From contig JBEWZL010000030.1 of assembly GCA_045837725.1 (NCBI GenBank), positions 310,001 to 374,000 on the forward strand: a DNA stretch of 64,000 bases, in the 5' to 3' direction. The notes below the pieces were generated by a model, which saw only the letters and a program-made list of their open reading frames with translations, searched no databases and had not been told where the DNA came from. Shown in pieces: positions 9,338 to 58,611 of the stretch. The stretch comes from Vermamoeba vermiformis (lineage: Eukaryota). Position numbers and translations under genes: made by a program. Position 1 is the stretch's first letter. The number at the start of each line of letters is the position of its first letter.

Positions 9338-11863
9338 ATGAGCGAATCTGGCCCAAGAACTCGTGTATTATCGTTAGTTCGATTCTATGAAGATTGGTTG
9401 AATAGTACTCGACCTGTAGAATTTACTCAACGCGCACAATTGCGTCGCGAGCTCTCAGAGCGCATTATGCCAACTCAATCTCACGAGGCACCTCTCCGTG
9501 CTGTCAGCTCCTACCCATTGCTTATTCCTTCTGGTAATAGAACTGGTGGAGTACAAAAACGAAGAAGAAGACCCAGTCAACCATTTATCCCAACGCGCAA
9601 GAGTGATGCTGAAGCTCAAACGGTGATCGAGGTTAAGCAAGCTGTTAAAGAAAAGCGCGAGAAGACCCGTAGAAAAAGAGAGACTAAGAAGAGACGAGTA
9701 TCTGCTCATCCTAAATTAGAGAAGCTTGACCACATTACACCTGAAGAAGTAGAAGCACCTCTTCAATTGAACATTTACCCCGCTCAAGAAATTCTCTCAT
9801 CTGAACGCAGCTACGTGAACTCCTTGCTCATGATGTCTCATGTAAGTATTATTAACCCGTGCACGTGCTATTTAACCTAACGTAATTTATATAGGCTTAC
9901 TTGAAGCCAATCGAGGACGGTCGTCAAACTTTGTCGGTGGATTCTTACCGTATCTTTGCCAACATCAGAAGCATCATTGAATTAAACAAGATCTTCTTGA
10001 CGCACTTGGAAGGTCGTAACATCAATCAATGGAACAAATTGCCCAAAACTGAGCAGCTTCTCGGCGATCTTTTTGTCGATCAGGTAACCGTTGCAAAATT
10101 TTGGTCACTAAATCCATTCAGTGTCTAACAAATGATATAGGCCGACTTGTTCAAGATCTACATCGAATATTGCGTTAACTATCACGAAGCCTACGCTTTA
10201 GTTCAAGAGTTGAAGCACCAATCTGAAAGTTTCAATCGCTTTGCTACCAAGAACAACCAATACGGCTCTGTCTTGGATCTTAATGATCTCTTGATTATGC
10301 CTGTTCAACGTACGTGCATAAGAGCTATTTAGTTGATTTGTTTTTAACGCGATCCGCAGGTGTTCCTCGTTACAAAATGTTGCTCGAGAACTTGCTTAAG
10401 TTCACTCTCGAAAGCCATCCTGACTACGAGAACTTGAAGGCTGCCATCGATAAGATGGGTTCTCTCGCTGATTTGATCAATGCCAAGCTTAAGGAACAAA
10501 AGAGTCAACGTCGCATGGCTTACATTGCGTCGCGTTTGCCCGAAGACTCCGCTGAAGCTGCTGACGTAAGTTAATATGAGACTAGTATGTTAACGAGAGT
10601 ACTCATGTTCTGTAGTTGATTGCTCCTACTCGTCGCTTGATTGCGGAGTTTACCTTCACGATGTACAAAGTCAAAGTGCACTCTGGCGGTGAAGTTCAGA
10701 CTTTGGCCAAGCCTCAACAAGTCTACTTTCTTCTTGTTCAACGACAAGATTCTGTTGGCCAAGGGCTACACCGTACCTACCCTCACTGCCAACTCATCAG
10801 ACTCGTTCTCGTTGCCCTCACTTTCATCACCAGATCTGGGTCTCAACATGATCATCAAGGACACTCATTTGCCCGCTAAGATGGAGCCTATTGCCTTCAT
10901 GGACCTTCAAAGCTCGTTCTTGCGCAAGATTTTGAATCCACCTAACACTCTCACCTTCCAATTGGTCAATCCTAAGGGCTACTACGTGCTTCAAGCCCAC
11001 TTGGAGGCCGACAAGAACCAACTCAAGGAATCATTCCGTGAGGCTCTTACTGGTCTTAACAACGACGCAAGAATCAAGCGCAGTCTGATCCGCGTATTCA
11101 CGGACGAGAAGTCTCACTTTGGCATCTGTGAAGCTATTGAACACGCCCCTGCTTTCTCTGAACGCATTTTGACGCAAGACTTGGCTCTTGAATCGAACAA
11201 AGAGACCATCAGAGCGCTTGAGGACTTGCTCGAGACCAATCGTGTTGTCCTGCAAAGCCGTCCTGTCACTCCTTCACCGATGAAGAAGCGACGCGAGAAG
11301 AAGGTTATCGACAAGCTTAAGAGCGCTATTACTGTCTTCTCGCCTAAGAAGGTCAAGGCAAGAGCTGCTGCCAAGCAAGAGGACAAAGAGAATGCTGAAA
11401 ACTTGGGTACTCAAGCTGAAGCGATCGTGCGACAGATCGACGATCTGAAGAGGCGCCAACAAGAGCTGCGATCAGGTATGTATCGGCTCTAATTAACATA
11501 CGACATCGAATGACTGAGAATCTAATTCTTACGTAATTTTTAGACGGCGCAAAGACTCCTCCATATGCTACTCCTCCAGCCACTCCTCGCACACCTATGG
11601 CTACTCCCAGAATCGATATGACTTCGACTCCTTTCGCTACTCCTCGAGTGCAAGAAGCACCTCGTACTCCGTTCACTGAACGCGAATTGCTTTTTGAAAC
11701 TCCTAAGAGCGAAAGACACTCCCGTCGCAAGTCGATCTTGGGATCCATTAAGAAATCTGGCATCAAAATGAAGAAGGCTGATCGTCATCATAACAATGAC
11801 GCTACTCCTCGCAAGGGTGTTGTGCCTACTTTGGATTTTAAGAAGATGGAACTCGTCAATTAA
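9338..11863 (+). CDS. RhoGEF (DH-PH) protein
   Basis: DH motifs EILSSERSYVNSL, FKIYIEYCVNY and LLIMPVQRVPRYKMLLENLLK. PH-like motif FFLFNDKILLAK. The last exon is Thr-Pro rich. Confidence 0.85.
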
Positions 11864-24539: not shown

Positions 24540-26604
24540 ATGAATCAAAACCACTTTATTATTTATTTGTTTATTTATTTGGCGATCCTAAGCGTCGTTG
24601 CAGGTTTCAAAGTACTCTTTCCACCTCACTTGGAAGGTGTTTATAACAGTCCATTTCTATCAAGTTACCCTACCAATATGTACGTTTCAAATATCCCATG
24701 CGAAGTAGAATCAGCAGTTTGCAAACTTGAACTAATTTATGCAATTGTTTTAGATCAAGAGACAAGCCCGTAGTTGCAAGGCTAACAGGTAGCTTCGCTG
24801 AAACAGGACCGTATGAAGGCACAATATTATTGGGTTGCATTGAGGATGAGATCGGGACGTAAGTCTACCGGAGTTTCGGTTGCTGAATCAAAAAGCGGCA
24901 TATTTAACAAGTTAACTCTCATAATAGTAAAATAAATGGCAAATTGATATCATTTATAGCAATTTTGAAATAACTAAATAGCACGAGTTGCAAACTTTGA
25001 AGTTTACGGACCAAATCCACGCTCGTCAGTTTTCTAACCGTCTTTATTTAGAATGGAGGATATCATACGTAGAGGAATGCGAAACTATCCTGGAATAATT
25101 GGGTGGCTCAGCTGCTCCGTATTTACGGGTAAGCAGAGCCTTCGTAAATCTAGACGATCTGACATCTGCTTCATAGATGTTCCTGGAGCGATTCAATATT
25201 CATTCGATGGCACCGATCGAACGGATATTGGTATTCCTGTTTGGGACTCGGGGCTTGCAAACATAAGACCTATCAGAGATTTTATGCGGAGTGATGCTCC
25301 GAATCGAACAGTAGTCATTGAAATTGATTTTGATGGTAAGCAAGTGGTTTCGTAGTTTAATGCGCACTGATAATAAGCAGAAACAGGCGTATTGCAACAT
25401 TTTTTTGCTTTTACCCAAAGTGGACATGATCTTGAATTAACGTATTCAACTGTAGACGTGAATGAATGGACAGCAGTCAATGATTTGGGAGTTAAAACGA
25501 TGTTCAGTGTGGTCGTTGGAGGCTTTGCTTTTGCAGTTGCCGGTGTAGCCCTTGCTAAACAAGTGGTAAGATCGGTTAATAACCTAATCGTGTATTATTA
25601 ATTTAACTATACTTAGATGTTCCTACGAGCTCAAGGGCCTACCCGAAACTTACCTCAAATTATTTTGTGGATTGAGTTTTTCGCGAACCTTGGTACGCAA
25701 CATTGTGATACGAAATGTCGAATGCACTATTAATATTATTATTATTATAGAGCGAGGTGTATATTCAGCTGTTGATCCGTTGTTGAGCGGTCGATTCATC
25801 TTTCCTTTCTTCGCAGCGAACATTTTACCAACAATTTCGCTCCCTGCTTATGCCACCACTTCGCTATTGATTACATTATATTGGTGAGTATATTTAAAGC
25901 TCTTAATCGATAATTATAATCCTTTGATTTGAGACAAATGAGTATAGCGCCGATAGTTCGGCCAATTTTTTTTAATCTGATGTTGCCTTTTTAGGAAAGA
26001 AGTGTTGTCCAACAAACAGATGAAAGTCGTTACATTCTTAGACAAGATGAAGGTCTATTTCTTGGTGTTTGTGTCATTGACTTGGGCCATCGAGATCATC
26101 AATGCGTTCTTGCGGTCATTTGGAATTGGTCCGTTCTTCATCCTCTTCGTCATCGTATCGATATTCTACTTCATCGTATCAGTTCTTACTGCCATATTCT
26201 TCCTTTATTATGGTCGCAAACTGCTTGGCACTCTGAACGATCCTGGTGTTGCGAAGGCCGAATCTAGATCCAGCAAATTCAAAGTACGCTGATGAATGAT
26301 AATATATAGAGTTCGTTATTAACAGAGAATATATTATTAGGCGGTTAGAATGTTAGTGACGAGTGCTGTTTTCGAGATCGTGTACAGTACGATCCTCATC
26401 ATGCCTGCAACGCCAGTCTATTTCCAGCCCCTTGGATTCTTTGCAGTTAACTTTGTTGTTTTTTTGCTCATGGTTGCGATCAGTTTGATCAAAGTCTTGG
26501 CGTTTGTTGCTCCCTCTGCTTCACCGAAGCATTCAAACTCGCCGAAAAATTCAGAAGCGATGACGCCTCGCTCTCCTTCTACTTCGCGAAATGTACAAAT
26601 ATAA
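24540..26604 (+). CDS. Signal peptide + PA-like domain + multipass (7TM, THH1/TOM1-like) membrane protein, copy A
   Basis: Spliced exons match ORFs 24540.., 25053.., 25392.., 25672.., 26002.. and 26350... Ectodomain with IGIPVWD, followed by several hydrophobic helices. Confidence 0.65.
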
Positions 26605-27551
26605 ATGATTGTAATATTAACTTTAAAACGTTCTGTAATTCTGTTCTGTTCGAAATTTTTAGTACTTCGATACGATCCAAGATGAGCGCAACAGAAGACA
26701 AAATAACTGCTCAAGAGACGCCCAAATATTGTCCTGTATGCTGTTTGATACGCAGTGGTGCCTTAGGAGGGTGAGTAGAGCCAACATTATTTCGCTCCGA
26801 AGTTTTACTCGGACTGATCTATTTCCAAACAATAATTAAAAATTATTCGTTATCATTATCATACACACTGCATATCATTGGTCAATATTTGTATTTATTC
26901 CGATCAATAGCAATTTTTGTTGATTTTTAACAATTTGTTTTTGTTTCAGCATGGCTGGCACGGCAGCAGGAGGATCGATCATGGCTCTGATGTCCGGTTA
27001 TCGCGTACTAAACAAGTCAATGACAACTTCTAAAGGCATTCAGTCAATACTGATTGCAGCCATTGGAACTGGCATTGGTTTTGCTGCGACATTCACCGGG
27101 TAAGTTCACTATCAGTGACTAATATCGAATAATGATACTCACGTTAATATTAATACTAATATGTACGACCATAGATATGCATTTGGATCACACCGATGGC
27201 AGTCATTGGACGTGAACTCATTTAATGTTCTTGGTGCGACAGCTGCTGCCTCTGGAGGTGAGCCTTTCATTATAACAACGATACATATCTATCAAATACA
27301 TTCATATTAACATAACCGTATGTTTCAGCGATGGCTACCTCACTTTACTGCGGATATTTATGGAGTGATCTGATCAACGATCAACCTCCACGTCACTCCA
27401 AAATACTAAGAACAGGTCTGATTGCATCAAGTGGTGCATTTGTAGTGGGAGGAGTGGCAGTCAAGTCGCTGTATCGCTATCTTGTGTTGAAAAGAAAAGT
27501 CGGTCTGATCTGCATTCCAGGACTGTTGGAGAGCGAGAACATCAAATAATG
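24605..27551 (+). repeat. Left arm of an inverted segmental duplication (partner 45313-48310)
   Basis: Exon-for-exon match on the opposite strand. ORF 27331..27549 is identical in protein sequence to ORF 45315..45533. Confidence 0.95.
26682..27549 (+). CDS. Small Gly-rich multipass membrane protein (Tim17/22/23-like character), copy A, 4 exons
   Basis: Manual splice gives MSATEDKITAQETPKYCPVCCLIRSGALGGMAGTAAGGSIMAL...AIGTGIGFAATFTGYAFG...MATSLYCG...ESENIK. The family assignment is tentative. Confidence 0.6.
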
Positions 27552-45312: not shown

Positions 45313-48310
45313 CATTATTTGATGTTCTCGCTCTCCAACAGTCCTGGAATGCAGATCAGACCCACTTTTCTTTTCAACACAAGATAGCGATACAACGACT
45401 TGACTGCCACTCCTCCCACTACAAATGCACCACTTGATGCAATCAGACCTGTTCTTAGTATTTTGGAGTGACGTGGAGGTTGATCGTTGATCAGATCACT
45501 CCATAAATAACCACAGTAAAGTGAGGTAGCCATCGCTGAAACATATTATTATGTTAATATGAATGCATTTGATAGATATGTATCATTGTTATAATGAAAT
45601 GCTCACCTCCAGAGGCAGCAGCTGTCGCACCAAGAACATTAAATGAGTTCACGTCCAATGACTGCCATCGATGTGATCCAAATGCATATCTATGGTCGTA
45701 CATATTAGTATTAATAGTAACATGAGTATCATTATGTGATATTAGTCACTGATAGTGAACTTACCCAGTGAATGTCGCAGCAAAACCAATGCCAGTTCCA
45801 ATGGCTGCAATCAGTATTGACTGAATGCCTTTAGAAGTTGTCATTGACTTGTTTAGTACGCGATAACCGGACATCAGAGCCATGATCGATCCTCCTGCTG
45901 CCGTGCCAGCCATGCTGAAACAAAAACAAATTGTTAAAAATCAACAAAAATTGCTGCTGATCGGAATAAATACAAATATTGACCTATGGTATGTAGTATG
46001 TATTATAATGATGCTGAATAATTTTTAATTATTGTTTGGAAATAGGTCAGTCCGAGTAAAACTTCGGAGCGGAAATAATGTTGGCTCTACTCACCCTCCT
46101 AAGGCACCACTGCGTATCAAACAGCATACAGGACAATATTTGGGCGTCTCTTGAGCAGTGCTTTTGTCTTCTGTTGTGCTCATCTTGTCTTGTATCGTTT
46201 GAAGTAAAAAATTTCGAACAGAGCAGACGCGTGCATCTAGAATGTTTTTTTAGTTAATATCACAATCGTTTATATTTGTACATTTCGCGAAGTAGGAGTG
46301 CGAGGCGTCATCGCTTCTGAATTTTTCGGCAGGTTTGAATGCTTCTGCGCTCCCGGAGCAACAAACGCCAAGATCTTGATCAAACTGATCGCAATCATGA
46401 GCAAAAAGGCAACAAAGTTAACTGCAAAGAATCCAAGTGGTTGGAAATAGACTGGCGTTGCAGGCATGATGAGAATCGTACTGTACACGAGCTCAAAAAC
46501 AGCACTCGTCACTAACATTCTAACTGGCTTATAATATAATATCTGTTAATAACAAACGCTATATATTATCATTCATGAGCCTACTTTGAATTTGCTGGAT
46601 TTTGATTCGGCCTTTGCAACACCAGGATCGTTCAGAGTGCCAAGCAGTTTGCGACCATAATAAAGGAAGAAGATGGCTGTGAGTACTGATACGATAAAGT
46701 AGAATATCGATACGATGACGAAGAGAATGAAGAACGGACCAATTCCAAATGACCTCAAGAACGCATTGGTGATCTCGATGGCCCAAGTCAATGACACAAA
46801 CACGAAGAAATAGACCTTCATCTTGTCCAAGAATGTAACGACTTTCATCTTTTTGTTGGATAACACTTCTTTCCTAAAAAGGCAACGTAATCAGATTAAA
46901 AACATTGGCACCGAACATCGCCCAAAACTCGTATGGGTCAAATCAAAGGAATGTAACTATTAATTAAGAGCTTTAAATATACTCACCAATATAATGTAAT
47001 CATTAGTGAAGTGGTGGCGTAAGCAGGGATCGAAATAGTTGGGATAATGTTTGCAGCGAAGAATGGAAAGATGAATCGACCGCTAAACAACGGATCAACA
47101 GCTGCATATACTCCTCGGTCTATAGTAACATTAATAGTATATTCGACATATTTATTAATGTTTTGCGTACCAAGGTTCGCAAACAACTCGATCCACAAAA
47201 TAACTTGAGGCAAGTTTCTAGTGGGTCCTTGCGCACGTATGAACAACTATGATTCATGAAATGTTATGTTAAATATAATGATTAATATCTAAGCCAGCTT
47301 ACTGCAAGTTTTGAGATAGCAACAGCGGCAACGGCGAAAGCGAAACCTCCAACAATAACACTAAAGGCTATTTTTGTTCCAGATTCATTTACTACTGTCC
47401 AGTCATTGACATCTGTATACGCGCGTGAGTTATGATCTCCGATATATTAGAAAAAAGAGATCGATTTAAGGTCTCAATAACGCAAGGTAGAAAAAAAACG
47501 TTTAAGGTGATAGAACGGGAATCTTGTAGTATTTGAAAGATGACCCGTTGCTCATGAAACCGCTTGCTTACCATCGAAGTCAATTTCAATGACTACTGTT
47601 CGATTCGGAGCATCACTCCGCAAAAAATCTCGGATCTGTTTGATATTCTCTAGTCCTGAGTCCCAAACTGGAATACCGATATCCGACCGATCTGTACCAT
47701 CGAAGGTATATTCTAGTAATCCAGGAACGGCTGCAAAGTGGATCAGATCGAGCAAACTTCGGCAACGTTATTCTTACTCGTAAACACGGAACAGCTAAGC
47801 CAACCAATTATTCCAGGATAGTTTCGCATTCCTCTTCTTATAATATCCTCTATTCTAGTACCAAGAAATGTTAGCGATAACTTAGTTAGGTTATGTTATC
47901 TTTGAGTTCTTATTTAGGAAAAGTAGTACGAACGAATCGCATCTCTAACTGACCGCTTAATATTTCTTGAATAATTTGCTACTCTAACAGCTGCAAATGC
48001 AGCTTTATTCAGATTCAGGAGTCTTTACGCATCTGAAATTAATAAAAAAAAAATAAACTTACGTTCCAATCTCATCCTCAATACAGCCCAATAAAATAGT
48101 ACCCTCATACGGCCCTGTTTCAGCGAAGCTTCCTGTTAGCCTTGCAACGACTGGCTTGTCTTTGGATCTGCCGGCAAAAAGTAAACAATTATTGGCAAAA
48201 CTTAAAAATGCAAAGGCGCCAATAATACTTACATGTTTGTAGGGAAACTTGGCAAAAATGGACTATTATAAACGCCCTCCAAGTGGGGTGGGAAGAGTAC
48301 TTTGAAACTC
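45313..48310 (-). repeat. Right arm of the inverted segmental duplication (partner 24605-27551)
   Basis: Reverse-complement similarity to 24605-27551. Similarity stops abruptly just after the shared stop codon (AAATAATG). Confidence 0.95.
45315..46183 (-). CDS. Small Gly-rich multipass membrane protein, copy B
   Basis: Near-identical to 26682..27549, including the introns. Confidence 0.6.
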
Positions 48311-48369
48311 TCCACCGTGCATAGGAACGCTAGATAGCTAAGCAAGCAAATAGTAAAAACTCGAGGCAT
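46270..48369 (-). CDS. PA-like domain + multipass membrane protein, copy B
   Basis: Paralog of 24540..26604 (FKVLFPPHLEGVYNSPFL, IGIPVWDSGL, FIFPFFAANI, YYGRKLLGTL). Confidence 0.65.
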
Positions 48370-48629
48370 TATCAACCATTGTTTTTGTAACAAAAAAAAA
48401 ATGAAAACGTTGGAGTTAGAAAAACCGTTGCGCCGGAGAAAAAATCCAAAATCGCACAAAACCTAATAAAGTAATTATATGTGCAAGGCTAAAATTAGTA
48501 TTACTGCTGTATAATAAGTTTCGAAAACTTATAATGAAGCACCTTAATTTTCAGATCTGAAACGTAGCTTACGATTTATGACTTTGTGGCTTAAGAATAC
48601 TCTTACAAAGTCACTCGCATATATCGCTC

Positions 48630-51118
48630 TTATTCTTCGCGGAAAGTCATCCAATCGAAGTTCCAAGTGTCTGGCTGACCTGCGTGAGGAATACCAGCGC
48701 AGTTAGGATTTTGACTCCAAACGAACACGGGCTATTTGCGTATTAGGATTAGTTCCTTGTTATATCGCTATATATAACTGTTCCTTACTTGTTGGTCGTG
48801 AGTAGGACCACTTTGAGCGATGTAAGCAAAGTCTTTGAACATGACTTGATCTGTTACTTTGACGTCAAGAGCACCACCGCAGTACACGCTATAAATAGAA
48901 TCATATTATGACATTGCACAATATTAGTGATTGATTCGCCCTTACTTAGGATTCGAGGGTTGCTCTAAATCGAATCTGCTGGCGATCTGGTTACCAGGGT
49001 CACCCTATCATTTTGCATGAGTAAGGCACGAAAATACGATTCTATCATTGATTATCATACCAATGCGAGAGGGTCGTGTTGCCAGTTGTTGTAGCGCATG
49101 ATCTTCTTCATGGCGCTCAAATCAGCAACTTTGTGTTGGTCTCTTCTGAACACATTGGCACGAGGAGCAGTCTCGTAGAACAAAGTAGGATCTTTCTTAG
49201 CAGCATCAGGATCTACGTTTAACGTTAATACTATGCAATACATCTATGCTAGTGTTACTTACAGCCAGAGATGTCGAAGATCTTGGGGAAGAAAGGAATG
49301 TTGTAGCTGGGCCAGTAACCGAGGGCCAAGTAGCGAGTGACATCAGCTGATTCAGTCATACTACAGTAACGGACATTAGTAACACGTCTTCATATGATTT
49401 GTTGCGTCGACCATACCCAGGGATTTGTTCGAGGATCCACAAAGCACCGTCATGCAAGGGCTTCTTAGGAGTGAACTTCTTGTAGTCAACGACGATCCAT
49501 TGGTTGTTGTAACTAAATAAACATGAGCAACTCATTATAAAGTTGTTACTACTTACGTTCCACTGTTTTCACGAGCATAGATCTCAACCCATTCTTTTCC
49601 GTTCTTGGCCATACGGTTCGCGACCATAACACGGAAAGTAGTGAAGATCGATTGAGGCTTAACCAAGTCCCACAAAGTATCGTTCATAATGTCGTTGGTT
49701 GTTTCCATAACCGTCAGACCACTAAACATAATATTAGATTGCCGTCAAGCGACACTCGTGTTTTGAACTTACCTGTCAGTGATGTAGAAGTCGTCTGAAG
49801 AGCTAAGAGTGGCGGGATAAGACGAGAACGAGACCTTGAAGGAGGTAGTCGAGGGGTCGTTCAAAGGGAAGTCGTACACTTTGAGCATCCGGTTCATAGT
49901 AGCGTAGTCGTACCAAGTGGTGTGAGCTGTCAATGCGTATTAACATTAAGCCCCTTAACATTACACGGGCCATGAATTGACTTACAGGCATAAAGGGAGG
50001 ACAAATCACTGGTAACTTTAACCAAGGAAGAGCAGTGGTCACGCTTGGTGATGTAAGCCTTCAATTCAGCAGGGCTCATGCTGCCAACATTAGGGCGCCA
50101 AGAGGCATCGACGACGTTCACAAGGTCTGTCCAGACTACTATTAGAACGTCCTGACATCGGCAACAAACCGTCCTTACCGCTCACGTCAGGCATGAAACA
50201 CATCAAGTACAATTGGTTCCAGGTGAACACAGGCTTGCCTCCGGCTTGAGTGGTAGCGTAGACATAACCAGCGTAGATACCCTCTAATTGAGTCAAGACG
50301 TAGCCGACCTATTCATTGCCATAGTTAATAAAAATAAAGGCAGAGATCCGTCGTGACACGAAGATTCGTACTTGTCTCCAGTAAGGGTCCTGTCTGTTGT
50401 TCTTGACTTGGTTGCGAATCCACTTCTCTTGAGTATCACAGAAAGCACCAGCCTTCTTCATGAATTCCTAAACAAAGGTTGGATAAGATTTGTTTTTCAA
50501 ATCTGCGTTCGCAGTAGAACGTACTTGGTAGGTAACTCCATCAGGTAATGAAGATTGGAACAAATACTGAATTTGGCTGTAATACACATTGATTTGAGGA
50601 ACGGTCATAGCACCTAAATAATAAATGTCAAAATATAAAATCGGGTAATAAGCGATTATTGATTTTCTCGCTACAAAAATCATATCTATTACCTTCAACA
50701 AATCCTGCAGCGTAAACTTGCTTGGGATCTTCATAAGCAAAAGAGCTGTGGACGTAAAGACGATCCCAACCGGTCAAATTCATCTCATTATGGAAAATAC
50801 CCCATGCAACTACGATTAAAAATTATTATTTACATATTAGTTAATTACGAAGCAAAATTTGGTTGGATCCGCTTATGAAAAATAAAACAACCAGACCGGA
50901 AAATTCTGAACGACTAATCAAAAGAACTTACCACCCTTTTCGGTATCTAGAACTCCAGGAACATAAATGTACTCGCCATCCTTAAGAAAGACGGTCCCCT
51001 GATCGGCCAAGCTTTAAAAGAGTTAGATTTCGTGTTTCGCTCATCCCGCGTTAGATAGCGCATACCTAATGCCAAAGCAAGTGGCTAAGAGGACAAACAA
51101 GGCCAAAGCAGGCTTCAT
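48630..51118 (-). CDS. Phospholipase B-like protein (PLBD/LAMA family)
   Basis: Signal peptide. Motifs [70 protein letters not shown] and SGPTHDQQ. Confidence 0.92.
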
Positions 51119-51605: not shown

Positions 51606-51642
51606 TCAGGTCAATTTTTTGGTGACCGGCACCGTGTAAAAA
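51606..51642 (+). repeat. Left bipartite inverted repeat: TCAGGTCAAT-N15-ACCGTGTAAAAA
   Basis: 51606-51615 and 51631-51642 are exact reverse complements of 56106-56115 and 56080-56091. Confidence 0.75.
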
Positions 51643-51829
51643 GCAATTGGTACCGTTCTTTTGAAATTTCGCTCGATAAATTTATCCACTACCGCTGCCT
51701 GGTTATTTCCCGGTTTAATAATTCTAAGAAGTGGGCCTGTTGCCCAATAAATTTTGCTGTTACTACGATACCATCTCACCACCACCAACGGCATTAATTT
51801 ATTTATTATTTATTACATCTAGCAAAAAA

Positions 51830-53923
51830 ATGACACAGATCAACGACACTGATCAGCGTGAGCGCCTAAAGGTTTTATATGACCAATATATGTTTACTCC
51901 AGGTGCCACTTGTAATAGTGAACGAAAAAACGGACCTTCTAAGCACATCGAGTGGATCGTCAATTTCGTGGAAAGGCAACAGCAAACCTATTTACCTAGG
52001 TATGTTTGTTCGCACAATACTGGAAAAATTAAACATTAAAGTTGCCTTGTAGTGCTGAACCAGAGCTGGGTGTCAATGACACGCAAGTTGCAGATGCGCC
52101 TAGCACAGATCCACTGGTGCCTCGCCCAAAGAAAACCCTAAGGACCTTGTGCAATTTGTGTGCAATGGAAAGAGCAAGCAGACGAAAAAAGCGAAATAGA
52201 CGAAATAGAATCCATCCGTGGCCAAAAATTATTTCAAAAAGGCACCGCATCCGTAGAATTGAGAGCATTATGCTAGATATTAATGGAAAGTTGAACAAGC
52301 GATGGAAGACTAACTTGTCGGAATTATTTTCTGTTGCCAGTAAAGAGGATCGCCCACGCATCGAAGCTTTCATCCAGCAAATTAACGATGGAGAATACTG
52401 GAAGGAAGAAAAACAAAAAATTGAAGAACAATTGACAGAAAAATTACGAAAGGACCCTGAACGAGTCTTGATTGCAAAAGATGAAGGCTTAATATCAGAT
52501 CACGTTTATTGGCAATTTATCAAAGAATTAGAATTGCACAATTTAATGCCTTCAATTACAATTATCAAAAATATCAGACAAAAATGGAACAAATACGTAG
52601 TTGATAAATTACATCTAACAAAAATGACAAATTTACCGGAGGGCTATTCTGGCTATCAATTGAACATCAAGGCTGTAGTTGAACTTATCTTATCAATGGT
52701 CATGCTATTTGGTTCAGGCCAGCCTGATGATGAATTAGAGTTCAAAGTTTCCATGGATGGCCATTGGATGAACGGCAAAAAAGAGATCTTGGTTGGTTTA
52801 ATTCCCATGAATATGGGATTTGTGGTAGGTGTGCTTTCTATTGAGTAACTAGTGAGTTGATTATATTTTTTTTGGCCAGGTGCAGAACGAATACACAATT
52901 TTCCCGATCGCTCTTTTCGAGGGCGAGGAAAAGTTTGATTTTTTAAAAACTGTTCTACATGACATAACAACAAGTTTGAATCAATTGCAAATTGAAGGCT
53001 TGGAATGGAAAGACAGAAAATTTGGAGTTAAAACGATTGTTGTTGTTGATCTGGCTGGATTGTGGTCGATAACTCCTTTAGAATGTGACTATAAACAACC
53101 AGAGCTGAACAAGCAATTTTGCCCGCATTGCACAGCAACTTGTGGAACAGCATATGTCTTTGAACCAGATGGCTTGGTAGAGAAACGACAAACACTGGAT
53201 GAGGCTTTGCTTGGATGCGAGCCAAAAAATCGAAGAATTTGTCCACGTTAAACAACTCGTCACAAGGTTTGGCAAGAACTACATTGCAAGATATGGCAGC
53301 AGAAAAGTTACACCGTACATCCACTTAATTTGTGCCCACCTTGTGGATTTATTGCGAGAACATGGCTCTATTGGACGTTATTCATTAGAGGGCTTTGAAG
53401 CCCATCATAAGTTTCACCGCCGCATCTTTCAGCGCTCAACTTCTCATCGTGGATGTCGCTCTAAAATTTCCAGTATTCTGCAGATCCTGCAACGAATTTA
53501 TCGCTTAATGTTGCTTCGAATCGATCTCAATGTCCCACCAGAGCACGGTGTAACGTTTCCAAAACTCTACAAGTTTGCAAAACAAACACCACAGTAAGAA
53601 CACAAATCAACTTTCGATATCGTAAATAATATATTTATTAATAAATATTTATTAGGTTTGGTCCGCGAAAGACTATTACTAGAAAAGACGTTAAGTGGAT
53701 CAATCCAGATGAAAAACAAAATACTGCCGTTAACAATGTGCAAGAGCCATTAAATGGTGAAATTGCTGAGCCTGTAGTCACAGTGATGTTAATGGAAATT
53801 GAGACAATGCCAACCCAACAAATTGATACAAATATGGATGAGGATCAATCGTGGATTCCGGAAGTTTTCGGAACTGTGTGGCCCACTGACCACACCAGCT
53901 ATGAGCCAATCATACCCGAATAA
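51830..53923 (+). pseudogene. RAG1/Transib-like DDE transposase, spliced, with an internal deletion and frameshift at ~53245
   Basis: Introns 52000-52052, 52825-52879 and 53594-53655 all splice in frame. Motifs FKVSMDG, IVVVDLAG, FCPHCTAT and VTPYIHLICAH...HGSIGRYSLEGFEAHHK. Premature TAA at 53249-53251. Confidence 0.8.
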
Positions 53924-53998
53924 GAGGGTGCACAGTGCTTTGTTTTACGTAATAAAATAACTCATTCAAAATTTCAATCGATTTTTTTATTATCAACG

Positions 53999-55058
53999 AT
54001 GGCGAAGCGAAAGAAACGTGTATATCCATTATTGCGATATAACTTGCCACTAGCATTATACAACCTATTATGGGACAAGCAAAAGGCAACTACAAAACGG
54101 CGATCTGCGAAAACAAAAAAACAACAAAGAAGATATTTTAAAATAATAGAAGTGAATTTTGATAGAGCAACTGTTAAAGAATTAGCAACACGCGATAAAG
54201 TAACAGAATGGGTGCAAAAAAATATTTTAGCTGATGACGAATACATTTACTTTAACCAAGATGTAACACTTGTAGACAAACAAATGCGAGCAGATCGCTA
54301 CACCGTTGAACAACGCATGATAGCTAAATTTTTGAAAGACAGAATACCAGATAATTTATTATTGATTTTGGAAGCTGCCGCAATTAAATTTGAGGAGGAG
54401 ATCGCAAAAGAAGAAAAGAATACAAATGAACGAGGAGAGATCACAAAATTTACATTTCACTTAGGTTGTTGGGCTCGTTTTAATGAAAGCGAGTACGCAA
54501 TCACTACATCCGAAACAGTGGCAGGAATTAATTTTCTCACTGCGTGCACAGAGGTTTTTGCAGAGGTAACATGCGTATATGCATTATTTTTAGATTAGTA
54601 AATGTAATTTTATTTTATTTTAAAGGTCGACCGCATCTTACGAGTCAATGCACCCTCCACTTATTCGACTCTAGTCCGCGCAAATCAACAATGGCCGACC
54701 AATTTGAGCCCGTGCAAAAGCTACAAATCAATTGCATTGAATTTGGACGGCAAATCGAAGTTTCATCTGGATCATTTGGACTATTTTGATGGTAGGCGGC
54801 AACAGAACTGCAATCTTAATAACCAAACGGTCATTTATAGGATACTGTCTTGTTATACCATTTGGAAAGTTTACTGGTGGTGATCTTGCCTTTCCACAGA
54901 TCAGCACAGCTCTTCAAGCGAAGCGAGGCGATGTGGTGTTATTCCATTCAGCGCAACTAGTGCATGGTAACTTGGATAATATAGGTGGCAATCGTCGCTC
55001 GATAGTATTTTTTACTCATGATGTATTAGTACGACCGTACATCAAAGTTACCAAATAG
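53999..55058 (+). CDS. TET/JBP-family 2OG-Fe(II) dioxygenase, ~316 aa, 3 exons
   Basis: Introns 54566-54625 and 54792-54840. Spliced core SIALN...KFHLDHLDYFDGYCLVIPFGKFTGGDLAF...RGDVVLFHSAQLVHGN...GNRRSIVFFTH (HxD...H...R). Basic N-terminus. Confidence 0.8.
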
Positions 55059-55433
55059 TTCGATCTGAAAAATTGATCTCCAAAGTTTGCAGCTCGTTCT
55101 TTATTACAAACCATCATCAACCAATAAAAAACACATTAAAATGCTTCGCAAGAACCATATTTTTAACTATGCATAACTAATTGTATTACAGCCACTGTCA
55201 TCAATTTAAATCTGCGGTTGAATCCACAGTAGCACTTTTTCATCACACCACGAGTATGAAATTAAGAATATAATATATACGTGGGTAAGCGTAGTTATTG
55301 TGATATCATTTAGCACGGTGAGACTTTTGAATATTTGTAAGTGTGGTTTTTCATCGCGGATCACCGAAGAAAAGAGCTTGATCTTCGCTTTAACATAAAT
55401 TTATTTATTAAAATACTTTAAATTTGTAATACA

Positions 55434-55982
55434 CTATATTCTATTTCCTTTAAATTGTCCATCGATAATATTTCCTCGCCATTTATCAACTTTGAACTGA
55501 ATCGTGATCTCCTGTGCGTGCCAGTTATATTTGAGAATAAATGGGACCCTCCAGTTCACTGCTGTCATTAATAATGAGAAATCACTATCAAATCCTACAC
55601 AACCGGCTTCAAGAGTTGGTAAAAAGTTTCTGATCGCGGCTGTGTCGAAGCATTTGTATGTGGTAATCAGCATGTAGTCCGTGTTAAAAATTCTTCTGCG
55701 ATTTTTTTGAAGGGTGTAGGTTATGTTGTTCTGTAAGCTCTTACTGAGGGGTACGTGGAGGATGCGTTTGAAGATCGTGGTAAGCAGGCCATCTTTAACT
55801 TTCAGCTGAGAAACAAGTGAATCTGGATGCATAGCCGCAGAAATAAATGCATCGAGACGAATGGAGGCATCCTCTTCCTCGTAGGTTCTCCCCTCAATTT
55901 TGATCACGGGGATTTGGTCAACATATTGTTTTAATTGCGCTAATCGATCTGCCTTTAATCTCCGAAGTTGTCTTGCATCCAT
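55434..55982 (-). CDS. Orphan intronless 182-aa ORF inside the putative transposon
   Basis: ATG-initiated open frame with AAAATG context. CCAAT and TATAAATA lie upstream on the minus strand (~56035-56049), and AATAAA lies downstream (~55403-55408). Confidence 0.65.
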   Translation of the reverse strand: MDARQLRRLKADRLAQLKQYVDQIPVIKIEGRTYEEEDASIRLDAFISAAMHPDSLVSQLKVKDGLLTTIFKRILHVPLSKSLQNNITYTLQKNRRRIFNTDYMLITTYKCFDTAAIRNFLPTLEAGCVGFDSDFSLLMTAVNWRVPFILKYNWHAQEITIQFKVDKWRGNIIDGQFKGNRI

Positions 55983-56079
55983 TTTAAATATATATACGCT
56001 TGAGCTGTGGTATTCATTATGGCTGGTGTGCGTTTATTTATAGGATTGGTCCGCAGAATTTTTTGGCCGGTTTTTTTCG

Positions 56080-56115
56080 TTTTTACACGGTTCTACGGGC
56101 GGACGATTGACCTGA
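56080..56115 (-). repeat. Right bipartite inverted repeat: TCAGGTCAAT-N14-ACCGTGTAAAAA (minus strand)
   Basis: Reverse complement of the two blocks at 51606-51642; the spacer sequence is unrelated. Confidence 0.75.
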
Positions 56116-56216
56116 CCACGTGTTTTTTTGGCTCCCAAGACAGCAGACAAACAAAAAGGGGCTTGTTTTCGATCTCGCAACGAACGAAACACATCCAAGC
56201 TAAGCTTTTTTAAATC

Positions 56217-58369
56217 ATGTCTTTGGTCACTAAATACACCGTTCAATCCCCGAACGTCCAAGTCACCGACGAGGCTATTGTATCCAACTACACCTACAAC
56301 TTTACCAAGGTCCAAACTAACGGTAATGACGTCGTTGCTACTCCCGTCGACAAGAAGTACACCTTCAAGGTTGACCGTAAAGTCCCAAAGCTTGGGTAAG
56401 CCGACATCCGCAGTTCACGTAATAACTTTTGGGACGCTAATCCTCTATTTCCAGCTTGATGATCGTTGGTCTTGGTGGTAACAACGGTTCTACTATCACT
56501 GCTGGTATCATTGCCAACAGAGAGTAAGCCCGAAAAACGAAATATTCGCTTTCGCGTTACGCGATCTGACACTTGGATGATTCAGGGGTATCACTTGGAG
56601 AACCAAGAAGGGTGTTCAAACTCCTAACTACTGGGGCTCTGTTACTCAAGCCTCTACTCTTCGTTTGGGTGAGGATCAAAACGGAGAAGAGATCTTCGTT
56701 CCTTTGAAGAACGTTTTGCCCATGGTACGCACATTTGAACAATTAGGCCACGAATTTAATAATATGACGGGGTTTCTAATGATTACCAATTGAAAAATAT
56801 CTTCGTGTTTTTGGATTTATTATTTGCTTTGCCGGTTCTAGAACCTTTTCCTGGTCTATTTATAACCTAAATATTATTCTATTATGCTCTTATTAACGAT
56901 CTATGGCGTTAGGTTGAACCCAACGATCTTGTCATCGGCGGATGGGACATTAACAACGCTGATTTGGCTGAGGCTATGCAACGCGCTGAAGTCCTCGAAT
57001 GGGACCTTCAACGTCAATTGATCCCCTACATGAAGAAATACAAGCCTCTTCCTTCCATCTACATCCCCGATTTTATTGCTGCCAACCAAGCCGACCGTGC
57101 CAACAACGTTATTGATGCTAAGACTAAGAAGGAGATGGTCGAGCACATCAGACAAGATATCAAGGTAATGTTCCGAAAATAACTCCAACCATTCTTTTAA
57201 TGTTGCAGGACCGGATCTTCGAAACAAAAAAATGACACGTGTCATTGATAAATCAGCGTTATAATATAATTCAATAATAGAACAAATACGAGAAAATATA
57301 GATTATGCCCAGATTAATTTTTAATTACGATTCACTAAAAAATTCGTTTCTTTACTAACCGAAAGTTGCTATTTAGAAATTCAAAGAAGAGAACCAAGTC
57401 GACAAGATTGTTGTTGTCTGGTCCGCCAACACTGAACGCTTTGCTGATGTTCGCGCTGGTTTGAACGACACCGCCGACAACTTGCTCGCTGCTGTTGAGC
57501 GCGACGAGAGCGAAATTAGCCCTTCTACTTTGTTCGCCATTGCTTGCATCTTGGAAGGCGTTCCTTACATCAACGGTTCTCCTCAAAACACCTTTGTTCC
57601 TGGAGCCATCGAATTGGCTGAGCGCCACAATGTTATGATTGGTGGTGATGACTTCAAATCCGGACAAACCAAGGTTAAGTCCGTCATGGTCGACTTCTTG
57701 ATTTCTGCTGGTTTGAAGCCCGTTTCCATTGTTAGCTACAACCACTTGGGTAACAATGACGGCAAGAACTTGTCTGCTGAGAAACAATTCAGATCTAAGG
57801 AGATCAGCAAATCCAACGTTGTCGATGATATGGTTGCTTCCAACCAAATCTTGTACCAACCTGGTGACCACCCCGACCACTGCGTCGTCATCAAGTACAT
57901 TCCTTACGTCGGTGACAGCAAGAGAGCTATGGACGAATACATCAGCAAGATCTTCTTGGGCGGCGAGAACACCGTCGTCATGCACAACACTTGCGAGGAC
58001 TCTCTTTTGGCCTCTCCCCTCATCCTCGACTTGGCTTTGCTCGCTGAGTTGATGACTCGTATTACTTACAAGACTGGTATGTATTGAAGTGTCTCGTGCG
58101 ATCCAGAACTTTTATTAACGTATCTGCAATATATAGAGGGTAGCGAGGAATGGGACACTTTCCACCCTGTTCTCTCCGTGTTGAGCTACTTGTTGAAGGC
58201 TCCCAACACTCCTCCTGGCACTCCCATCGTCAACGCTCTCTTCAAGCAAAAGGCTTGCATCGAAAACATCTTCCGTGCTTGCGTTGGTTTGCCCGCCGAG
58301 AACCACATGACTTTGGAGCACAAGCTCATGAAGGAAGTTCAAGCCCGAAAGACCTTCTTGAGGAATTAA
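56217..58369 (+). CDS. INO1: myo-inositol-1-phosphate synthase
   Basis: [61 protein letters not shown] and [12 protein letters not shown]. Confidence 0.97.
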
Positions 58370-58611
58370 GCCTAGCAACAATCCTTCGAATTGTTGATCT
58401 GTAAATGTTCATTATTAGCACCATATTTTATATCATATCGACAACCAATTTTGTATCTCTTGTGAACCTTGAATAAAGGAATTCCGTACTAACACTGCGG
58501 ATGCGAATTTCTCCACTAAAAATGGCTCAGATCTCGGAACGGTATTATAGAGATAAACTTCAAAGAATTCAGGTCTAAGCGTGCAATGAACTTTATTTAA
58601 ACTAAAAAAGT

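Follow-up and report, generated by a model that had tools for sequence, protein, structure and literature searches.

Transib transposons are 3-4 kb long and have bipartite ends made of a heptamer, a variable spacer and an A-rich block; these ends read CACAATG, 23 nt and AAAAAAATC, the first three bases are invariant, and insertion duplicates 5 bp of the target site (target-site duplication, TSD), as described in the accessible part of PMC1131882. RAGL elements also make 5-bp TSDs (10.1101/2023.08.20.553239, accessible part; PMC9435367), and a protist RAGL with TSDs of this length has been described (PMC9435367, the supplement text of which holds no amoebozoan term among those searched). For the CMCT clade (Kojima 2025, PMC12730594), TSDs of 2-5 bp are given, with a duplication of TA in ESTA. 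The same paper reports TET-carrying elements from fungi, describes ESTA-1_PGr as about 12 kb long and starting with CACCAC, and proposes that TET acts as an anti-silencing cargo of the fungal elements, all according to its accessible sections. Spy, a member of the PHIS superfamily that is related to IS5/PIF-Harbinger, is a TIR-bearing DDE transposon that inserts between AAA and TTT and has no TSD (accessible part of PMC4122938).

Delimitation of the element by a terminal motif pair

Within the window, that is, the whole 64,000-nucleotide stretch of DNA analysed here, an earlier note had singled out a motif pair at 51606-51642 (+ strand) and 56080-56115 (- strand) and had read it as a bipartite, RSS-like end architecture. 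Profile comparison, predicted fold and other copies now support the view that the pair forms the terminal inverted repeats, bipartite in layout, of a transposon whose transposase is RAG1-like. Both motifs were found at these positions and account for the 2 matches in the window, compared with 0 in each of 100 shuffles. When the right-end region was shuffled 500 times, the best inner-block match behind an exact 7-mer reached 10/12, against 12/12 observed. The genome-wide search for inverted pairs that the note had recommended was carried out in a 43-Mb assembly of 309 contigs and retrieved the exact end pattern four times, as two inverted pairs located in the window and on contig C227 (controls, 0); relaxed end patterns added three sites, on contigs C126 and C223. 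Across three end patterns, 7/7 distinct matches sit at element ends, those of mini-elements included, and reversed-pattern controls gave 0.

Alignment of flanks, also recommended in the note, placed the termini at 51607 and 56114 and revealed no TSD:

51607 to 56114, + strand: complete transposon (4,508 bp), 5'-CAGG...CCTG-3', without TSD; second copy with other flanks on C227, empty allele on C306, loose ends of reads at 51607 and 56114

The motif therefore marks the ends as claimed, except that the leading T (51606 and 56115) belongs to the flank, because a C stands outside both ends of the C227 copy. Homology between element copies ends exactly at the terminal CA. At 51607 and 56114, read contigs from DNA run X1 pass from the element into the C227 flanks; they also connect 51608 to 56115 via one T, which represents the empty allele. 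X1 is probably the assembly's own sample, so that this confirmation of the junctions is not independent. Filled and empty alleles are both present, and the insertions are heterozygous. The C126 copy is a mini-element of 1,056 bp, and non-autonomous copies end at the same motif. We also considered the C227 copy as a true deletion derivative, which is doubtful, as read contigs cover the element evenly. We regard it as almost certain that the motif pair represents the real ends of a young, polymorphic family of RAG1-like transposons.

Three small contigs begin within a few bases of an element end (L033:1 on C223, L041:2 on C140 and L054:1 on C122), and further heterozygous insertions may therefore hide at contig breaks.

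Joins between element and target

The earlier note had listed the lack of a visible 5-bp TSD as a mere difference from RAG-type elements; it became our main result. Six insertions have both flanks, and 0/6 show an exact repeat of 3-12 bp, with 2-5 mismatches when 5 bp are compared. For three of them an empty allele is available, and none (0/3) displays a TSD: two joins are exact and one differs by 3 extra bases. The C126 insertion and its allele on C46 are colinear for about 3 kb on each side and the join AATAAA|TATGTA is exact, with a 7-nt indel 10 nt away. For the C227 insertion, AGAAAC|GCCGAG is contiguous on C306, again an exact join, with only 9 nt of left flank adjoining a rearrangement junction. 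The window site, GATTTT|ACCACG, shows no repeat when compared with C306, and here the empty allele has an extra CAT in both assembly and reads. Among the sites for which no empty allele was used, C294 has a 1-bp match (C|C), C263 a 2-bp match (GT|GT) and C77 none; empty alleles for the C294 and C263 insertions were not found. The flanks of C77 probably do not derive from one site: its allele on C81 matches one flank only, and the left flank lies within another repeat and has no match to the allele. A tandem-repeat-rich dispersed repeat (L037:3687-4262, also on C84, C202 and C243) adjoins the C77 element end. At C223, the contig stops before the other end is reached, while the contig of the allele begins 3 nt into the flank. 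The six target sites share no AAA|TTT-like target. A palindromic target dinucleotide was considered as well, given T^A, C^G and A^T at three CAGG sites, and fails at the other three.

Could integration simply be sloppy, with a stagger that varies around zero and produces 0-2-bp duplications or small target deletions? Under this reading, which we find rather unlikely, insertion at the window site removed 3 bp (CAT), and duplications of 1-2 bp are made by the C294 family. The C|C and GT|GT matches at the C294-family sites would agree with it, as would the occurrence of CAT in both left-flank copies on C306, which are 2.1% substitutions apart compared with 0.7% for the element copies, so that CAT may predate the insertion. 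However, two of the joins are exact, matches of one or two bases are expected by chance at about 1/4 and 1/16 per site, respectively, and the two lengths disagree. Moreover, CAT is the start of CATG, the joined terminal dinucleotides, as would be expected of an excision footprint. We slightly favour CAT as such a footprint, a remnant of terminal CA and TG. Whether or not this holds, the filled sites carry no duplication, and insertion without a TSD is likely to be the rule for the family, judged by three informative sites.

On C306 (L042:4800-4830; G000 C306 at about 9807-9820), four pieces come together at one junction: the left flank of the window copy, CATA, 9-10 nt from the left flank of C227, and the right arm of C227. 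The C227 left flank was found once, and within the stretches compared there was no match to the 20 kb lying beyond it on the left. Both insertion points thus lie within about 10 nt of one breakpoint, which suggests a rearrangement caused by the transposase and post-excision alleles: the junction is a possible transposase-driven translocation, and both C306 alleles may be post-excision or rearranged.

Composition of the bipartite ends

Each end consists of a heptamer, a spacer and a 12-nt A-rich block:

51607 to 51613, + strand: left terminal heptamer CAGGTCA, invariant in 6/6 aligned ends
51614 to 51630, + strand: left spacer, 17 nt, equal in length in the C126/C223 subfamily
51631 to 51642, + strand: left inner A-rich block ACCGTGTAAAAA
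51649 to 51715, + strand: left subterminal motifs GGTACCG (51649-51655) and GGTTATTTCCCGGTT (51701-51715), common to the C126 and C182 left ends
56080 to 56091, - strand: right inner A-rich block ACCGTGTAAAAA
56092 to 56107, - strand: right spacer, 16 nt, ending in CGTAGA; also 16 nt in C126 and L078, 15 nt in the decayed C96 end
56108 to 56114, - strand: right terminal heptamer CAGGTCA, from copies, reads and aligned ends

The conserved outer block hence comprises 7 nt, with spacers of 17 and 16 nt, rather than the 10 nt with 15- and 14-nt spacers reported before. The left spacer measures 17 nt in the window, C227, C126 and C223, and the right one 16 nt in the window, C227, C126 and L078, which comes from another assembly. 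With its 15-nt spacer, the decayed C96 end is offset by 2 nt, and the inner block has been lost from the left end of C182. Across the 6 aligned ends, the inner block is of the type A(C/A)CG(T/C)G(T/A)AAAAA, and its alignment is optimal at a shift of -1 in 5/5 comparisons of left with right ends and at 0 in 4/4 comparisons of like ends. The spacers do differ between left and right, as the earlier note had it, but they are not unrelated and non-conserved: their length and distal part are conserved per end type. At positions 17-23 of the ends, the three right ends match each other at 7/7, 6/7 and 6/7 positions and the two left ends at 4/7, while left and right ends match at 1-2/7. Nor do the data support giving weight to the inner CACCGTG to which the earlier note had pointed: it lies 23 nt inside the terminus, and its counterparts are AACCGTG at the right end and CACCGCG in the subfamily of C126.

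The genome also contains two more distant sister families, C77, with CATTAC at its ends, and C294, with CAATA; none of the termini starts with CAC, in line with what had been noted for the outer block. In both families the termini are CA..TG, an A-rich block lies further in and the spacers are offset by 1 nt, with the polarity reversed in C294; the C294 termini were predicted first, and a second copy, located on C263, then agreed with them to the base. Spacers range from 16 to 19 nt across the families, and left and right spacers differ by 1 nt in 4/4 end pairs compared, with the polarity reversed in one. The first half of the spacer has drifted, and the heptamer, the inner block and the spacer length are retained. 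Heptamer and spacer lengths are kept while synonymous sites of ORF3 (see below) are saturated, so that the ends have been maintained over a long time, and the 17/16 spacing looks selected.

The preserved 1-nt offset in the window and C126 subfamilies and in C77, along with the end-specific distal spacer, might be taken to mean that cleavage needs one 17-type and one 16-type end, analogous to the 12/23 rule. We regard such a rule as improbable. The asymmetry, which the earlier note had likened to that of RSSs, amounts to one base as opposed to about 11 nt in RSS12/23; it is far from the helical turn by which V(D)J RSS spacers differ, falls within the +/-1 tolerance of RSS spacers (accessible part of PMC1131882) and changes polarity in C294. 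Furthermore, the end-specific subterminal motifs could distinguish left from right without the spacer.

Fidelity of the junctions

A third reading, that an ordinary short TSD is made and was subsequently erased by repair, recombination between copies or assembly error, appears very improbable to us. The assembly is noisy in places, as illustrated by a poly-C run inside the C227 copy, the rearrangement junction on C306 involves both young sites, and the left flank of C77, which lies in another repeat, has no match to the allele; these points could be taken in its favour. Against this stand the exact join of C126 and C46 with colinearity on both sides, the read contigs, which repeat the junction letters of the assembly for both the window and C227, and the youth of the copies, which are 0.7-0.9% apart (0.7% in the 3' 1.5 kb). 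That the motifs are promoter elements or chance matches with no tie to transposition, as their position 130-220 nt upstream of a start codon at both ends and the divergent intergenic location of the site could have implied, is refuted by the empty allele that lacks the whole segment, and the motifs recur at the same ends of other copies rather than at ordinary promoters.

The transposase

As eukaryotic DNA, the window has GT-AG introns, and these are removed in RNA-type runs. The first gene of the element is the following:

51830 to 53923, + strand: RAG1-like DDE transposase gene, predicted GT-AG introns 52000-52052, 52825-52879 and 53594-53655, Pfam RAG1 E 5e-5

Using the intact relative P0009 as reference (46% and 64% identity on either side of the gap), we found that about 137 codons are missing near 53230, the C(2)H motif included, and that the frame shifts and stops at 53249. 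Judged by its sequence, no complete transposase can be produced from this copy, which would have to be mobilised in trans. The read contigs are interrupted at 53230/53232, and in most of them 24 additional bases are present at 51857; other copies may therefore be fuller. A whole transposase of the window's subfamily was not found in the assembly. Reads also show a second small inverted-repeat element at window positions 52523-52528 inside another transposase copy, possibly with a 4-bp duplication, and a similar 30-bp inverted pair is present in the C27 transposase at a contig end (L035:8904-10000).

In the C77 relative, the core is one open frame with D98, D176, C195/C198, C233/H236, H377/H382 and E402. 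The residues of the DDE triad and of the C(2)C, C(2)H and H(4)H motifs are thus present, with C(2)C and H(3-4)H between the second D and E, and the protein scores above the Pfam RAG1 cut-off (29.9 bits vs 25). A structure model of this transposase (pLDDT 89, 51 sequences) matched RAG1 best (Z 22.1, rmsd 3.5, 418 residues aligned), followed by BbRAG1L (21.8), HzTransib (15.4 with the unbound structure, rmsd 8.0), the P element (13.2) and Hermes (7.7). Foldseek returned RAG1 at E 6e-13 and the DNA-bound, hairpin-forming HzTransib complex at E 5e-10 (TM 0.61), and profile comparison gave RAG1 at 2e-17, BbRAG1L at 2.5e-10 and HzTransib at 3.5e-6. Identity in the structure alignments is 12-15% (HzTransib 12-13%, RAG1 13-15%), and the N-terminal match to the RAG1 nonamer-binding region is weak (12 bits). 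A weak search retrieved no longer homologs of the N-terminal part of C107. The nearest sequence relatives are unnamed proteins and not RAG1; among the clusters looked up, those with names are almost all 'hypothetical', and no strong RAG1 score was obtained for the 92 relatives scanned (48 with three genome queries and 44 more) out of 205.

Associated genes

Two further genes lie between the transposase and the right end:

53999 to 55058, + strand: TET/JBP-family 2OG-Fe(II) dioxygenase, 319 aa, with introns predicted at 54575-54625 and 54792-54840, HxD...H...R motifs
55434 to 55982, - strand: ORF3, 182 aa, orphan family, convergent with the transposase, only gene found on 1-kb mini-elements

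The TET/JBP frame is open after predicted splicing and matches Pfam Tet_JBP at E 1.7e-4, under the curated cut-off; the C77 relative is above the cut-off and matches NgTET1 and CcTET. TET genes accompany the C77, C294 and C140 transposases, too. A different repeated element at two loci that are 99.7% identical (L085:4370-10000 and L086:3919-10000; G000 C301 and C152) carries a TET 48% identical to that of C140 together with a DUF7869 protein of transposase-like look, and in this genome, too, TET genes may pass from one type of transposon to another.

ORF3 has 6 homologs with 54-64% identity, a dN of 0.25-0.33 and a pS of 0.76-0.87, meaning that synonymous sites are saturated, and by these values it is under purifying selection. 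A homolog with 58% identity is contained in a Vermamoeba vermiformis transcriptome record, and the family therefore occurs in amoebozoans; the host of the window is presumably an amoeba of similar kind. ORF3 matched no Pfam family; its model is poor (pLDDT 46), with no Foldseek match at E<=0.001 and Atlas matches that are unnamed and low in shared features. The window ORF3 shows modest homology to the C27 ORF (probability 58%), and none was detected with the C77 ORF, so 'ORF3' in C77 and C294 denotes the same position and orientation only. Among 9 element ORFs scanned, none matched RAG2 or a kelch family.

Viral contigs yielded 10 single end-pattern matches, none with a related gene nearby, and no relative was confirmed when viral contigs and prokaryote genomes were scanned at the protein level by narrow, word-based searches. 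A metagenome scan with ORF3 reduced 143 pattern matches to 1 locus, which has a right end only. In RNA run X11 (raw, from a diverged strain), the element ends and most of the interior are uncovered, and in RNA run X5, from another study and with spliced host genes, three short element pieces are covered at depth 3-4, too weakly to count.

A model of transposition and its relation to known systems

The motifs are probably the two transposase-binding ends of a cut-and-paste transposon, related to RAG1/Transib (CMCT-type), that integrates without duplication. By analogy with RAG and Transib, a transposase dimer would hold each end, its heptamer lying in the active site and its A-rich block being gripped by an N-terminal, nonamer-binding-like domain, such that spacer length would fix the phasing. 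Cleavage would take place at the CA termini, corresponding to the heptamer border (as for RAG and Transib; 10.1101/2023.08.20.553239, accessible part). Zero duplication implies that the two strand transfers hit directly opposite phosphates, and both 3' ends would accordingly be joined to the target at directly opposite positions, with zero stagger in place of 5 bp. The TET enzyme would most likely oxidise 5-methylcytosine to escape silencing, and ORF3 would most likely be an accessory factor for transposition or anti-silencing, a role that fits its purifying selection and its status as sole gene found on mini-elements.

With Transib, the element shares a RAG1-core-like DDE transposase with C(2)C and H(3-4)H, seen in the sequence and fold of the C77 relative, and the layout of heptamer, spacer and A-rich block, with 16-17 nt of spacer as against 23. 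Unlike Transib, its families start with CAG, CAT or CAA and have no CAC heptamer, no 5-bp TSD (0/6 two-ended sites), two extra genes and 12-13% identity. RAG1, RAGL and ProtoRAG provide the best structural and profile matches (Z 22, E 2e-17) and also have bipartite ends, and RAGL/ProtoRAG resemble the element in having a second gene convergent to the transposase; identity to RAG1 is only 13-15%, however, and RAGL/ProtoRAG differ by a RAG2-like kelch gene, of which none was detected here, as well as by CAC and the 5-bp TSD. The lack of CAC, 5-bp TSD and RAG2 is why we do not file the element with Transib or RAGL, although it would work like them. The CMCT clade agrees in the 5'-CA..TG-3' termini at all ends compared and in C(2)C and H(3-4)H between the second D and E, whereas its 2-5-bp TSD is seen at 0/3 empty-allele sites, with a 2-bp match at 1/3 of the others. 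TET-carrying ESTA differs by its TA duplication, its length of about 12 kb and its CACCAC start. Spy is alike in lacking a TSD (3 sites here), but the present enzyme is of RAG1 type instead of PHIS type and the six targets are varied, without AAA|TTT.

In the literature consulted, which did not extend to Repbase, subscription journals or the target site of Lanisha, no description of such a family was found. The best reading, drawn from a small sample, is an apparently undescribed RAG1/Transib-related lineage that integrates bluntly. We put forward only tentatively, as something that we doubt more than we believe, that it forms a new superfamily-level lineage among the closest structural kin of RAG1, combining blunt, scarless integration at varied targets, CAC-less RSS-like ends, an accessory ORF3 subunit in the place that RAG2 takes in RAGL, and TET as anti-silencing cargo.

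The 5-bp duplication of RAG, RAGL and Transib reflects how the enzyme bends and attacks its target. If the proposed reading is true, an enzyme that has the RAG1 fold, joins with zero stagger and uses ends without CAC would make it possible to test which parts of the protein determine target geometry and heptamer recognition, and would represent a second route to TSD-less insertion, unrelated to that of Spy, with a possible use in scar-free integration. The element adds to the relatives with which the origin of V(D)J recombination can be traced and extends TET-carrying transposons beyond the fungal cases in the accessible part of PMC12730594, and elements that lack a TSD are missed by annotation that depends on one.

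Neighbourhood of the insertion

The element sits in a divergent intergenic region, between window positions 48600-51100 and 56210-58370, about 100 nt upstream of a myo-inositol-1-phosphate synthase gene and also upstream of a phospholipase B-like gene (weak match), and could alter the expression of both. Window segments 24555-27551 and 45313-48357 form an inverted duplication with 75-89% identity, and on C306 the duplicate reaches the insertion site. Finally, the segment 20477-21152 is purine-rich and internally repeated, probably a low-complexity coding repeat.
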